Shown here: one piece after another, positions 5,762 through 8,833 of the stretch
Layout of the letters: the number at the start of each line of letters is the position of its first letter
Position numbering within the stretch: the stretch's first letter is position 1
Origin: an uncultured Chloroflexia bacterium
GTDB lineage: Bacteria; Chloroflexota; Anaerolineae; JAAYZQ01
Assembly (NCBI GenBank): GCA_963701775.1
Contig: CAVPBH010000017.1
Coordinates: 128,729 to 192,728 of the forward strand
Direction: 5' to 3'
DNA length: 64,000 nt
Translations under genes and position numbers: made by a program
The notes under the pieces: model-generated
Databases searched by the model: none
Told to the model about the DNA's origin: nothing
What the model saw: only the letters and a program-made list of their open reading frames with translations

Positions 5762-6511
5762 TCAATGCCTGGTATTCTTCTTCACAGGGCTGCCGTCGCC
5801 GAAGGTGTAGCCGACCTTCTTCACCCCTCCGGCCTTCAGGCTGGCCGTGCGGCCAGACACCACCAGCTCCAGGCTGTACCACTGCCCGGTGTTGATGGTT
5901 TCCGGGACAGCCGCCCGCGTGTAGAGAGTGCCTGCCAGCCTCTCGCCGATCACCCACTGGTTGAAGTCGTCCTGCAGGCCGGCGAAGCGGTAGTTGTCGG
6001 CGTCCCGATAGTCGAACACGAGGTACCCGTTGTGCGCGATGGCGCCCAGGCTCTGGGTTTGCACCTTGGCCCACACCTTGCCCGTCCGGAAGGTGGGCGT
6101 CCACAGGCTCACGGCATTGCCCAGCCCGCTGTAGGCTCGTTTCTCGACGGCCCAAGTGCCGCCGTTCGGGCTCCAGCCGTTGGCGTTGCCGTCGTTGAAG
6201 TCGTCGCCAACCAGGTCGCGGCCAGCAGGGATCTGGTAGACCTCGTATCCCGCGCCGGCGTAGGTCGTGACCCCAATGCCGTCGTCCTTCTTGACGAGAG
6301 TCCCGCCCCCGTCGTAGGTCAGCGTCGTAGTCTTCCCGGCGAAGGTCACCTCCTTCAGCCGGTTCTCCTCGTCCCAGGATTGCCCGTAGGTGACGCCGTT
6401 CTCCTTGCGCGTCGTCATGTTGCCGTTGGCGTCGTAGCCGAAGGCCTCGCCGTTGACCACCTTGGCGGCGTGTGCGTGGGCCGGATCGACGGTCAGCGTG
6501 CCTCCCGCCAT
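5762..6511 (-). CDS. RHS/YD-repeat protein fragment (YD repeats + truncated LamG/ConA-like domain)
   Basis: YD repeats: GYDANGNMTTRKENGVTYGQSWDEENRLKEVTF and TYDGGGTLVKKDDG. The C-terminal segment NGYLVFDYRDADNYRFAG...QWVIGERLAG...GYTFG is homologous to the N-terminus of the 7365-8780 ORF. Start placed at internal ATG 6511; the ORF is open upstream to 6739, overlapping the lipoprotein gene. Confidence 0.65.
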   Translation of the reverse strand: MAGGTLTVDPAHAHAAKVVNGEAFGYDANGNMTTRKENGVTYGQSWDEENRLKEVTFAGKTTTLTYDGGGTLVKKDDGIGVTTYAGAGYEVYQIPAGRDLVGDDFNDGNANGWSPNGGTWAVEKRAYSGLGNAVSLWTPTFRTGKVWAKVQTQSLGAIAHNGYLVFDYRDADNYRFAGLQDDFNQWVIGERLAGTLYTRAAVPETINTGQWYSLELVVSGRTASLKAGGVKKVGYTFGDGSPVKKNTRH

Positions 6512-6527
6512 GCGGTGAAGCCCGCTC

Positions 6528-7349
6528 TTAGGGACTGAAGCCCGGCCACTCCTCGAGCTTGTCCGGCCAAGGGACGCGCTCTGTTCCGCCCTCATGCTCG
6601 TTTGGCCACGTCTGCCAGTTGTATTGCACAGGCGAACGGATGAGGTCCCCCAGCGTCGTTGGTGCAAAACGGTACTCCGTGATGACCGAGTCTTGTCGTT
6701 CGACCGACGGATAGTGGAGGGTTGTGTCCACCTCAGCAACCAGCCCCTGAGTCGGATAGAGCATGACTAGTACGCCCATCTTGCAGTCGGGTGTGCTACC
6801 TGCGATCGCCCGCAGCACCTTCTCCGGCGCCCCGAGTCGCTCTACAAGGTCACTCGCGGTCAGGTGGCAGGCCGCAGAGTAGTGCTGCCACAAAAGCCAC
6901 TGCACAACGTCATCCTTCACCACGACGGCGTTTCGCTCCCCGCATGACGGGCAGGTCGTGCAGCGCCAGCCTATCCACGCCTGGCCCGGCCGCGAGGGGT
7001 CGGGCCACGGTCCCTCATACGTGTACCTCGAATCCACAAGCCCACAGGTGCGCAAAGCCTCGCGCACTTCGTCCACAGTCGTCTCTCCCGGAACCATTGG
7101 CACGAGACACGCAGGGCTGAGGTTCCCGGAGGGCGGGTTGCAGGCTGCCGCTATGGTGTCCATGGGCCAAGCGGCGCAAGTGACAGCCACCTGAGAATCG
7201 GGCGTACCGCTCAATGGGGCGGTGGCGCTCTCGCGTTCCGGGGGGATACGCCGGATGCCCGCTCCGGCGCACCCAGCAGACAATCCGGCCGCGATGAGGA
7301 TAGCCAGTAACCTTTTGCCGAACAGCTTGGTGTCCACGGGTCCGTTCAC
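6528..7349 (-). CDS. lipoprotein; candidate immunity protein for the upstream HExxH RHS toxin
   Basis: Signal peptide plus lipobox (LLAILIAAGLSAGCAG). Cys-rich (CTTCPSCGERN). Sits immediately downstream of the RHS-CT cassette on the same strand, the canonical immunity position. Confidence 0.5.
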   Translation of the reverse strand: MNGPVDTKLFGKRLLAILIAAGLSAGCAGAGIRRIPPERESATAPLSGTPDSQVAVTCAAWPMDTIAAACNPPSGNLSPACLVPMVPGETTVDEVREALRTCGLVDSRYTYEGPWPDPSRPGQAWIGWRCTTCPSCGERNAVVVKDDVVQWLLWQHYSAACHLTASDLVERLGAPEKVLRAIAGSTPDCKMGVLVMLYPTQGLVAEVDTTLHYPSVERQDSVITEYRFAPTTLGDLIRSPVQYNWQTWPNEHEGGTERVPWPDKLEEWPGFSP

Positions 7350-7364
7350 TTGGCACCTTCCCCT

Positions 7365-8780
7365 TCAGTCGACCAACAGATCATAGAACAACCATAGGAC
7401 GGGGGAGTTTGGATGACGCAGTGCAAAGGCGACGATACCTTGCGAATACCCCACCAATCCCCGCGGATCTCCCAGACCCGTGAGATGGAAGGAAACCCAT
7501 CTGGCCCATGCCTCCCAAGGTTGGGGATCGCCGCTACCGCGCGCCAGGTAGCTAAGCCAGTATCCGCTGTTGCGATCCCAGGCGTGTGCAAGCTCGTGGA
7601 GAGTGTCCGCCGCTCCTATGTCACGCGCTGCGTCGCCAAGTCGTGGCAGGTTTAGTACGTCGATGGTTCCAGTTTGCGGGTTGTACGCCATGCTGCGGGC
7701 ACATATCCTGGCGCCGCAAAGGAATGTCAGATCGTAGTTGACCCTTCTGAATACTATGCTGCCCACCGCCTTGCGGTACTTGGCGTGTCCGCCCATGGCA
7801 CGAACGAGTGCCATGACGCCGGAGTGAAGCTGCTCTGCCTGCCGCCGTAACCATCCTACGCCGTCGGACGTAATGGTAACGGCAGCCGAGAACAGGTCGC
7901 TTCTAACCAAGAAGGATGCATCCCACCCCCATGCGGCAAAATCCACGACCTGCAGGGAGAACTGATAGTCCCACCAGTCCTGATCCGTCGGTGTGTGACC
8001 GTGCTCTTGTTCAAACCTCTGCGCCCACTCTTCATCCCAGTGACCGGTGCGGTCGAGATACCTAAGCGGGTTGCCGAGAACATAACTGTATCGGTTGAGA
8101 CTTTGCGGATTTGAGGGATCTGGGACCATTGTGTCGGGGCTGATCCAGCGGCCGAGCTGGGGGTCATACTGCCTTGCGCCCATGAAATACAGGCTGGTGT
8201 AGCCGTCAAGGAGCTGCCCCGTGAAGCGATACTCGGTCGGGAAGGTGCCGTCCACCGGCCAGCGCTCCGTGCCATAGGGGTAGTGCCGGATCTCGTCCAC
8301 TTTGTTCCCCGCCGCGTCCAGCACCACACTCACCGTCCCCAGGTGGTCTGCAGCCAGGAAGTAGAGCACGTGGTCCCGGCGCATGGCGATCCGCTGCCCG
8401 CCGAATGTGTAGTACTTGGTGACCTGCGAAAAGGCGCGAAGGTACACCTCCTTGAAGTGGGTGTGTGCCTGGTCGATGCGCAGCCCCACCTGCCCGCCAT
8501 GGATGCCGCCGAAGGTGTAGCTTGTCTTCACCACGCCTCCGACCTTCAGGGTGGCCAGGCTTCCGCTGACTTGCACCTCCAACTCGTAGAGGGTGCCCTT
8601 GACGATGGTCCCCGCCACGCTGGCCCGCAGGGTGTCCGTGCCGCTGATCACCTCCCGGATCACCCATTGCCCGTTCGTGCCGTCCATGCCGGCATACTTG
8701 TAGTTGGAGCCGTCGAGATAGTCGAACACCAGGTAGCCGTTGTACTGAGGCGCCGAGTTGGTCTGCGCGACGGCCATCAC
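7365..8780 (-). CDS. RHS repeat-associated core + C-terminal toxin domain with HExxH (metallopeptidase-like) motif; orphan RHS-CT cassette
   Basis: The RHS core end reads YTFGGQRIAMRR...YPYGTERW...YRFTGQLLDGYTSLYFMGARQYDPQLGRWISPDTMVPDPSNPQSLNRYSYVLGNPLRYLDRTGH (DPxGL-type boundary). It is followed by a roughly 240-aa tip containing TLHELAHAWD. The N-terminus begins mid-LamG-like domain, so it lacks the N-terminal/secretion part of a full RHS protein. Confidence 0.8.
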   Translation of the reverse strand: MMAVAQTNSAPQYNGYLVFDYLDGSNYKYAGMDGTNGQWVIREVISGTDTLRASVAGTIVKGTLYELEVQVSGSLATLKVGGVVKTSYTFGGIHGGQVGLRIDQAHTHFKEVYLRAFSQVTKYYTFGGQRIAMRRDHVLYFLAADHLGTVSVVLDAAGNKVDEIRHYPYGTERWPVDGTFPTEYRFTGQLLDGYTSLYFMGARQYDPQLGRWISPDTMVPDPSNPQSLNRYSYVLGNPLRYLDRTGHWDEEWAQRFEQEHGHTPTDQDWWDYQFSLQVVDFAAWGWDASFLVRSDLFSAAVTITSDGVGWLRRQAEQLHSGVMALVRAMGGHAKYRKAVGSIVFRRVNYDLTFLCGARICARSMAYNPQTGTIDVLNLPRLGDAARDIGAADTLHELAHAWDRNSGYWLSYLARGSGDPQPWEAWARWVSFHLTGLGDPRGLVGYSQGIVAFALRHPNSPVLWLFYDLLVD

Positions 8781-8833
8781 CCCCAGCCGTCCGGAGGCTG
8801 CCTCTGCCCATGCCCTGATCCGCCTGCTCCCGA

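Follow-up and report, generated by a model that had tools for sequence, protein, structure and literature searches.

The question raised by the locus described here is which enzyme, if any, sits at the end of a truncated RHS gene, and whether the lipoprotein gene that adjoins it encodes the corresponding antidote. The locus lies in a stretch of 64,000 nucleotides (the window) of contig CAVPBH010000017.1, assembly GCA_963701775.1, from an uncultured Chloroflexia bacterium, where an open reading frame of 471 amino acids (7365–8780; this and all other window features mentioned below are on the minus strand) forms an orphan RHS C-terminal cassette. An earlier reading, made from the DNA letters and a list of open reading frames (here called the sequence-only reading), had proposed that the C-terminal “tip” of this protein is a metallopeptidase-like toxin and that the lipoprotein encoded downstream is its immunity partner. 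The account that we consider probable is that the cassette is an orphan, that its tip is a toxin of the gluzincin type and that the lipoprotein confers immunity to it; the assignment of the tip to the zincins, taken by itself, deserves somewhat more confidence than this account as a whole, and the proposed site of action in the cell envelope somewhat less.

The RHS-associated core of the cassette ends with NPLRYLDRTGH (residues 237–247, window 8040–8072) and is followed by a tip of 224 residues (cassette residues 248–471; 7368–8039), which is predicted to be a gluzincin-type zinc metallopeptidase domain of an unnamed family. The core boundary, the HExxH and the Trp-rich beginning of the tip, all described in the sequence-only reading, are present where they had been placed, whereas its length of “about 240” residues is obtained if one counts from residue 233, the part that follows the core being 224 residues long. 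The tip contains 13 Trp residues. Some of these are found in the segment TDQDWWDYQFSLQVV (7944–7988), which is helical in the predicted model and is the best-conserved stretch of the RHS-fused members of the family, with a mean pairwise identity over TDQDWWDYQFSLQVV / QDWWDYQFSLQ of 65% as against 17–39% elsewhere in the tip. HELAH (tip residues 148–152, in the helix 143–158; 7584–7598) would supply two zinc ligands and the catalytic Glu, and in WEAWA (tip residues 175–179, in the helix 174–187; 7503–7517), E176, located 23 residues past H152, is the predicted third zinc ligand.

Whether the HExxH is conserved in homologues, a point on which the sequence-only reading had made its proposal depend, could be answered from an alignment of 30 of them. 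H148, E149, H152, A179 and W63 were found in 30/30 and E176 in 29/30, the exception having an Asp, so that both HExxH and the Glu-x-x-Ala element are kept almost throughout. The spacing HExxH-x23-E fits the gluzincin motif, which has been defined as HEXXHX(8,28)E (PMC9266454), and some relatives of the tip have much longer inserts between the HExxH and the Glu element. A HExxH is expected by chance 0.009 times in a protein of this composition and, taken alone, would be unremarkable across the six-frame translation of 64 kb, but it is evidently non-random here because H, E and H are retained in all 30 homologues. At the level of primary structure, the tip bears the gluzincin signature, HExxH plus Glu.

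As a single-sequence query the tip matched nothing in Pfam, NCBIfam, PADLOC or the PDB sequences, in agreement with the sequence-only reading, which had been unable to assign it to a named toxin family. A word-indexed search of 5.8 billion proteins gave three relatives, an exhaustive HMMER search with a profile, run over 1.84 billion cluster representatives, gave 20 proteins at E <= 1e-3, of which 19 are true members, and a second profile search added about ten further relatives and recovered the window protein; a 1027-residue repeat protein (P0020) among the profile matches was set aside as a false positive. A metagenome scan with a degenerate HExxH pattern, which is poorly selective, returned one locus, and no member was found in viral contigs. 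The majority of the members directly follow the RHS core motif DP[ST]GH. Five carry an organism label, namely four loci in metagenome-assembled genomes (MAGs) of Anaerolineae/Chloroflexota and one partial protein in a MAG labelled Planctomycetaceae. As far as its sequences reveal, the tip is a rare, small and unnamed family.

A link to characterized enzymes was obtained when a profile of 20 members was compared with all PDB sequences. The best match, over about 70 residues, was the active site of anthrax lethal factor (E 1.2e-4), where the HExxH of the tip aligned with HEFGH and the E-D-F-A segment of the family with E-F-F-A-E. Below it, the C-terminal domain of VgrG2b (6h56, E 0.016) and MtfA (two entries), PPEP-1 and an ATLF-like protein (E 0.07–0.6) were not significant, and a zinc metallohydrolase lipoprotein was also among the matches. 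Of the 17 PDB matches listed, 13 are named zinc peptidases or hydrolases, one is uncharacterised, and three are eIF4A with E > 1. The Pfam models pointed in various directions below their thresholds: M60, M90, M91 and MPTase-PolyVal had best E values of 9e-4 to 8e-3, each in one or two members, the Peptidase_M91 model (HopH1/NleD) reaching E 0.0076 in two of 20 members. No match was found among the 20 members to the Tox-MPTase models of Pfam, nor in any of them to the ATLF model even at E <= 10. The nearest relatives of the tip thus appear to be the group of zincins that includes lethal factor, MtfA, PPEP-1 and VgrG2b.

The predicted structure was then considered at the level of its elements. 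AlphaFold, when provided with 20 sequences, modelled the tip with a pLDDT (predicted local distance difference test) of 88.8 and a pTM (predicted template modelling score) of 0.88, whereas a run with four sequences gave a pLDDT of 46 and was discarded. The model begins with N-terminal helices, continues with strands 54–59, 95–101, 117–120 and 125–130 and the helix 65–82, and ends with the HELAH helix, the E176 helix and two C-terminal helices. In the model this is the order expected of a zincin, where a four-strand sheet with a backing helix (65–82) would precede the active-site helix. Foldseek found no significant match to the model in the PDB (best E 0.28, TM, i.e., template modelling, score <= 0.43), and the weak top matches were mostly zincins, i.e., collagenase G, PPEP-1, lethal factor, LTA4 hydrolase, deuterolysin, selecase, vibriolysin and PprI. 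A comparison with viral structures likewise gave weak matches to IrrE, PolyVal-MPTase and “lethal factor”, none of them significant. The sequence-only reading had treated homology to a non-enzymatic fold as damaging to its case; the best matches are to zincin-type enzymes, weak as they are (E >= 0.28), and together with the conserved motifs, the profile match to lethal factor and the pLDDT of the model they favor the metallopeptidase-like tip that it had described.

A HExxH enzyme need not be a protease, and the tip could instead hydrolyse peptidoglycan, lipid or a glycoconjugate as a zinc enzyme, or be a HExxH-motif oxygenase. Zincin-like folds do include non-proteases, a HExxH alpha-ketoglutarate oxygenase domain (8s5f) is found at rank 25 of the Foldseek list, one profile match is described merely as “zinc metallohydrolase”, and cell-wall enzymes turn up as well in arrays that hold homologues of the tip, as in the metagenomic locus L001, where one RHS cassette has a Peptidase_M23 tip. 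The oxygenase match, however, has a probability of 0.06, all profile matches below E 1 are zincins, most of them with demonstrated peptidase activity (lethal factor, MtfA, PPEP-1, VgrG2b), and the catalytic Glu of the HExxH is invariant, so that we regard this explanation as highly improbable.

With a peptidase as the preferred reading of the tip, the second part of the question concerns the gene that follows it. It encodes a lipoprotein of 273 residues (6528–7349), predicted to be the cognate immunity protein, and starts 15 nt past the stop codon of the tip, behind the purine-rich, Shine-Dalgarno-like AGGGGAAGG. Its signal peptide and lipobox (7269–7349) end with LSAGC, and the lipobox is retained in all homologues. 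The lipoprotein does lie immediately downstream, as the sequence-only reading had it, and “Cys-rich” is a fair, if mild, way to describe its ten Cys (3.7%), of which seven, including that of the lipobox, are invariant across four homologues. In the public gene call (P0036) the protein has 182 residues and starts at residue 92, with the loss of the signal peptide and four conserved Cys; the 273-residue form is backed by the homologues P0035, P0037 and the copy in L001. The lipoprotein had no relative in the PDB and no match to a known immunity family.

The tip and the lipoprotein are adjacent in three lineages, the window being one of them. The second consists of four metagenome contigs (L009–L012), where the tip is 83% and the lipoprotein 76% identical, and the third of L001/L002, where the values are 53% and 50%, with the same pairing in both. 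Other subfamilies of the tip have other partners: HEMGH-type tips are paired three times (L003, L007, L020) with a SdrD_B-like lipoprotein of 135–152 residues, a HELGH-type tip (L005) is followed by a lipoprotein of 247 residues that is a distant relative of the 273-residue protein (E 9e-7), and one further tip is followed by a protein with multiple transmembrane segments. Partners that differ from one tip subfamily to the next but all belong to the envelope form the pattern that one would expect of cognate immunity to an extracytoplasmic toxin. The site of action would likewise be the envelope, since every partner gene seen encodes a lipoprotein or a polytopic membrane protein, and the analogy with VgrG2b–PA0261 also suggests an envelope-acting toxin.

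The rival explanation that the lipoprotein has nothing to do with immunity, being instead some envelope protein unrelated to the tip, a factor with an accessory or export role, or the tip's natural substrate, with immunity absent or encoded elsewhere, can draw on the missing match to known immunity families, on a length of 273 residues that is large for an immunity protein, and on two relatives with other neighbors, since one homologue occurs without a tip and a 238-residue lipoprotein of the window, distantly linked through the L005 protein, sits upstream of a different tip. It does not explain why tip and lipoprotein co-diverge in three lineages (83/76%, 53/50%) while staying adjacent at 15 nt, or why each tip subfamily has a different, always envelope-located partner, as is expected of cognate immunity; lone homologues, moreover, fit the known phenomenon of orphan immunity genes (PMC10539506). 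We therefore hold this explanation to be improbable and the 273-residue lipoprotein to be probably the antidote of the tip; the proposal of an immunity partner in the sequence-only reading gains from both the conserved pairing and the different envelope proteins of the other subfamilies.

Two observations on the relatives of the lipoprotein may be added. The lone homologue (P0037, 52% identical) is located in L013/L014 at 8001–8774, right after a HicA/HicB pair and with no tip gene adjoining; a LamG-containing fragment and a SUFU-like gene (Imm-SuFu type) are nearby, and it probably represents an orphan immunity gene within a toxin island that has decayed. The 238-residue lipoprotein (10621–11337) is weakly related (E 1e-6) to the L005 lipoprotein and through it to the 273-residue protein; these lipoproteins may form a loose RHS-associated family with a putative W-x-G-x-x-PG-x-[ST] motif, and the 238-residue member may be an immunity gene that lost its toxin.

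Taking the architecture, the conserved motifs, the pairing of toxin and lipoprotein and the purifying selection described below as the observations, we infer the following course of events. Since the cassette lacks its own delivery parts, it would become deliverable only after homologous recombination, via the LamG-like segment, the shell or the core, onto a full-length exported RHS gene, as known RHS biology would have it. The aspartyl autoprotease of the RHS protein would then cut after ...DRTGH and free the tip inside the shell; both Asp residues of the presumed autoprotease motifs are kept in the core of the cassette (YDP...LDRTGH). After transfer, the tip would cleave some protein or peptide that a competitor has outside its cytoplasmic membrane, with H148 and H152 of the active-site helix and E176 of the next long helix holding the zinc and E149 activating the water, and in sibling cells the membrane-anchored, probably disulfide-bonded lipoprotein would bind and block it. 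The alternative role of the tip as a releasing or processing peptidase was rejected, since the domain is the last part of the protein and RHS proteins have an aspartyl autoprotease of their own.

Several observations weigh against the account given so far. On the side of the enzyme, a profile of the HELAH subgroup alone reached just E 0.04–0.5 against the PDB, again with zincins, which is too weak to confirm the link to lethal factor; no Pfam metallopeptidase model reached its threshold when the tip members were scanned one by one; and the predicted model was read at the level of the order of its secondary structure. On the side of delivery, the core motif here is DRTGH, with Arg in place of Pro, where all relatives have DPxGH and specifically DP[ST]GH; the cassette is without most of the shell and without an export or delivery domain, as just 247 residues precede the tip; no full-length RHS gene is present in the window, where RHS motifs occur only in fragments between 5762 and 12555; and the L001/L002 copy (L002 1738–2890) has at least two frameshifts between core and tip, with the open reading frame of the tip (from MEQDWWDY) and the lipoprotein gene left intact, and shows that such cassettes do decay. 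Finally, a subgroup of tip homologues follows a Peptidase_M28 gene, without RHS and without a lipoprotein, and from this non-toxin context it follows that the fold is not intrinsically that of a toxin.

The cassette is an orphan, because its open reading frame opens within a LamG-like domain and a full-length RHS gene is absent from the window; as it stands it is not a deliverable toxin, most of the shell and the N-terminal domain being absent, and for the same reasons it may be silent. This leads to the rival explanation that the cassette and the lipoprotein gene are decaying, unexpressed leftovers and that their motifs reflect recent ancestry from a working toxin. The start of the open reading frame inside a domain speaks for it, as do the RHS pieces of the window (5762–12555), which are all fragments and one of them frameshifted, the lack of a full-length RHS gene upstream on the same strand, the frameshifted core–tip junction of the L001/L002 copy, and the lipoprotein homologue that stands alone beside HicAB in L013.

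The pattern of substitutions, on the other hand, is that of genes under constraint. Relative to L010, the ratio of nonsynonymous to synonymous substitution rates (dN/dS) amounts to 0.29 in the tip and 0.50 in the lipoprotein, at a dS of 0.27–0.39 and with no stops or frameshifts, and to 0.28 in the RHS part (dS ~0.4); relative to L001 the values are 0.31 and 0.38 at dS > 1 (0.31 at dS 1.3). Both genes have therefore evolved as coding sequence under constraint, and the values of 0.28–0.31, which include a copy at dS 1.3, indicate a long-lasting purifying selection. The open reading frame is intact over 471 codons. Orphan cassettes, moreover, form a reservoir known to be open to activation by recombination, and in Salmonella the activation of orphan rhs-CT/immunity modules by this route has reportedly been demonstrated. 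A silent remnant is thus an unlikely explanation, even if it is one to be taken seriously, and it bears on present expression only, not on the identity of the domain.

The architecture of the cassette explains where it was cut off, and goes beyond the sequence-only reading, in which the gene had not been recognized as 5′-truncated rather than a complete RHS protein. Residues ~1–115 (8436–8780) are the C-terminal half of a LamG-like / 3-keto-disaccharide-hydrolase-like beta-sandwich that is inserted in the RHS shell, and this is the truncation point. Residues 3–91 are 53% identical to residues 224–314 of a downstream fragment (5762–6739), i.e., to the second half of its LamG-like domain, and the segment is also a DNA repeat (8507–8743 versus 5797–6033, 72–78% identity). 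No similarity to the first half of the domain was found in the in-frame DNA upstream of the cassette start, and the gene must therefore be 5′-truncated. Residues 107–247 (8040–8462) comprise the end of the YD/RHS shell and the RHS-associated core, with matches to TEN_YD-shell of Pfam (residues 107–234, E 1.5e-7) and to TIGR03696 Rhs_assc_core of NCBIfam (residues 167–247, E 3.7e-20). In the public gene call (P0025, 100% identical, on a 279-kb contig) the protein starts one codon later and has 470 residues.

The cassette is one of several RHS pieces in the window. The downstream fragment (5762–6739), which has the LamG segment in common with it, consists of YD repeats and a complete LamG-like domain and is then truncated; the Pfam matches of this fragment to 3keto-disac_hyd and Laminin_G are weak and below threshold, and the listed start of its open reading frame overlaps the lipoprotein gene, so that the real fragment is shorter. 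Just upstream of the cassette is a second orphan cassette (9539–10621) with a core (TIGR03696, E 7e-24) and an Ntox44 tip (PF15607, E 6.5e-15); its partner is a gene of 214 residues (8834–9478) with a lipobox-like LSTLGAC after a long N-terminal extension, which may also be a lipoprotein. Further upstream, an RHS-repeat fragment (11350–12555) switches frame into a LamG-like domain (11643–12275) and is either a frameshifted pseudogene or the result of a sequencing error; its listed open reading frame opens directly in YD repeats, with no N-terminal RHS domain recognized upstream, and the gene for the 238-residue lipoprotein sits between it and the Ntox44 cassette.

Three fragments of the window (8436–8780, 5762–6300 and 11643–12100) thus have a LamG-like insert in the RHS shell, a short way ahead of the core. 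Near the equivalent position, a full-length RHS protein of 2389 residues in an Anaerolineae MAG (L007, 184–7353) has a CBM60 carbohydrate-binding module (residues 1823–1907), and these LamG-like and CBM60 modules may be surface-binding inserts of Chloroflexota RHS shells. The L007 protein has a signal-like N-terminus and heads an array of orphan cassettes, one of which carries a tip homologue and is accompanied by a lipoprotein gene; in L007 as a whole, three different tips follow the RHS core. At L007 184–660 an internal Met is followed by the hydrophobic, signal-like segment MRTQQPATNGGKSRTVLVSLSVSIILSLFFSLLSPVAAAV, which suggests Sec-dependent export of this protein rather than a carrier of the T6SS (type VI secretion system) kind. 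Different tips behind the same core are also found in the window (Ntox44) and in L001 (Peptidase_M23), and the array of L001/L002 holds, in addition, a protein of 463 residues with PD40 repeats beside the cassette with the Peptidase_M23 tip.

The subgroup of homologues that occurs outside RHS proteins deserves separate mention. These standalone proteins of ~215 residues (P0011, P0027–P0033) keep HEMGH and E-D-L-A; in L016 (6001–6654), L017 (3895–4548) and L019 (2263–2907) each directly follows a large gene, which in L016 encodes a Peptidase_M28 protein of 790 residues whose end overlaps the start of the homologue by 1 nt; in L016 and L017 a pair of genes for an ECF (extracytoplasmic function) sigma factor and an anti-sigma factor is located upstream. 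Their existence suggests that an ordinary peptidase gave rise to the toxin, or that the change went the other way. QDWWDYQFSLQ is near-invariant where the domain is fused to RHS and degenerate in the standalone subgroup, and one might go further and envisage a new family of gluzincins that exists in two forms, as an antibacterial toxin carried by RHS proteins and acting on the envelope, and as a standalone enzyme that is translationally coupled to an M28 aminopeptidase, where QDWWDYQFSLQ would be a delivery-specific module. Such a module might be required to pack the tip into the shell or to release it, for its entry into the envelope of the target, or for auto-inhibition. We consider this two-lifestyle view speculative and rather doubtful; if true, it would show the conversion of a housekeeping peptidase into a toxin and provide a handle on RHS targets in the Chloroflexota envelope.

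The orphan cassette with its peptidase tip and lipoprotein would, if confirmed, enlarge the catalogue of polymorphic-toxin tips by an enzymatic family with its immunity family, so far placed mainly in Anaerolineae/Chloroflexota MAGs. In the Chloroflexota there has been little work on antagonism between bacteria or on what the cell envelope consists of, and the extracytoplasmic target predicted from the lipoprotein and membrane partners bears on what is exposed and essential in this envelope. The family is small and has a clear signature and a confident predicted structure, and is therefore suited to a Pfam-type model and to an assay of toxicity and protection. The view of RHS systems in general is unchanged by it.

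Several known systems resemble parts of the locus. The orphan rhs-CT/rhsI modules of Enterobacteria (Poole et al. 2011, PMC3150448; Koskiniemi et al. 2014, PMC3967940) are similar in that a 5′-truncated RHS fragment keeps the core homology, the tip and the immunity gene and is arrayed with other such fragments; they differ in that the array of the window has no full-length rhs gene at its head and in that the shared homology includes the LamG-like insert of the shell. The C-terminal metallopeptidase of VgrG2b acts in the periplasm, and the immunity proteins of this system are periplasmic, anchored as lipoproteins or by transmembrane segments, have conserved Cys and depend on DsbA (PMC6899460). 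Like VgrG2b C-ter/PA0261 (Tpe-Tpi; Wood et al. 2019, PMC6899460), the cassette would combine an antibacterial zinc metallopeptidase, here a predicted one, that is fused to a delivery protein with an envelope-directed, Cys-bearing immunity protein. The carrier, however, is an RHS protein and not a T6SS spike, the immunity proteins are unrelated in sequence, and no T6SS context was seen in the probable Chloroflexota host, where the full-length RHS protein of a relative (L007) has a Sec-like signal. The match to 6h56 is not significant, and the resemblance to VgrG2b is one of function and architecture only.

With lethal factor, MtfA, PPEP-1 (Zmp1) and the ATLF-like gluzincins (MEROPS M34, M90 and relatives) the tip shares a HExxH and, further along the chain, a Glu ligand that belongs to an E-x-F-A helix. 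The similarity to this group is limited to the ~70 residues of the active site, with a global TM score <= 0.43, and the ~50 N-terminal helical residues and the two C-terminal helices are specific to the tip family. In lethal factor a Tyr sits seven residues before the Glu ligand, and to this residue the tip family has no conserved counterpart.

The closest precedent in terms of organization is provided by the metallopeptidase tips of RHS proteins that were catalogued in 2012 as Tox-ALF-MPTase, Tox-HopH1 and Tox-MPTase1–5 (Zhang et al. 2012, PMC3482391). As in these, a zincin-like HExxH domain is located at the extreme C-terminus of the RHS protein, past the core, is followed by an immunity gene and occurs also as a standalone cassette. 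In contrast to them, the tip matches no Pfam model at threshold and has the signature QDWWDYQFSLQ ... HExxH ... E-[DE]-[FW]-A. Since the corresponding Pfam models do not match it at threshold and its signature is its own, the tip is an undescribed family inside a known category, that of the metallopeptidase tips on RHS proteins, whereas the type of RHS system to which it belongs is a familiar one.

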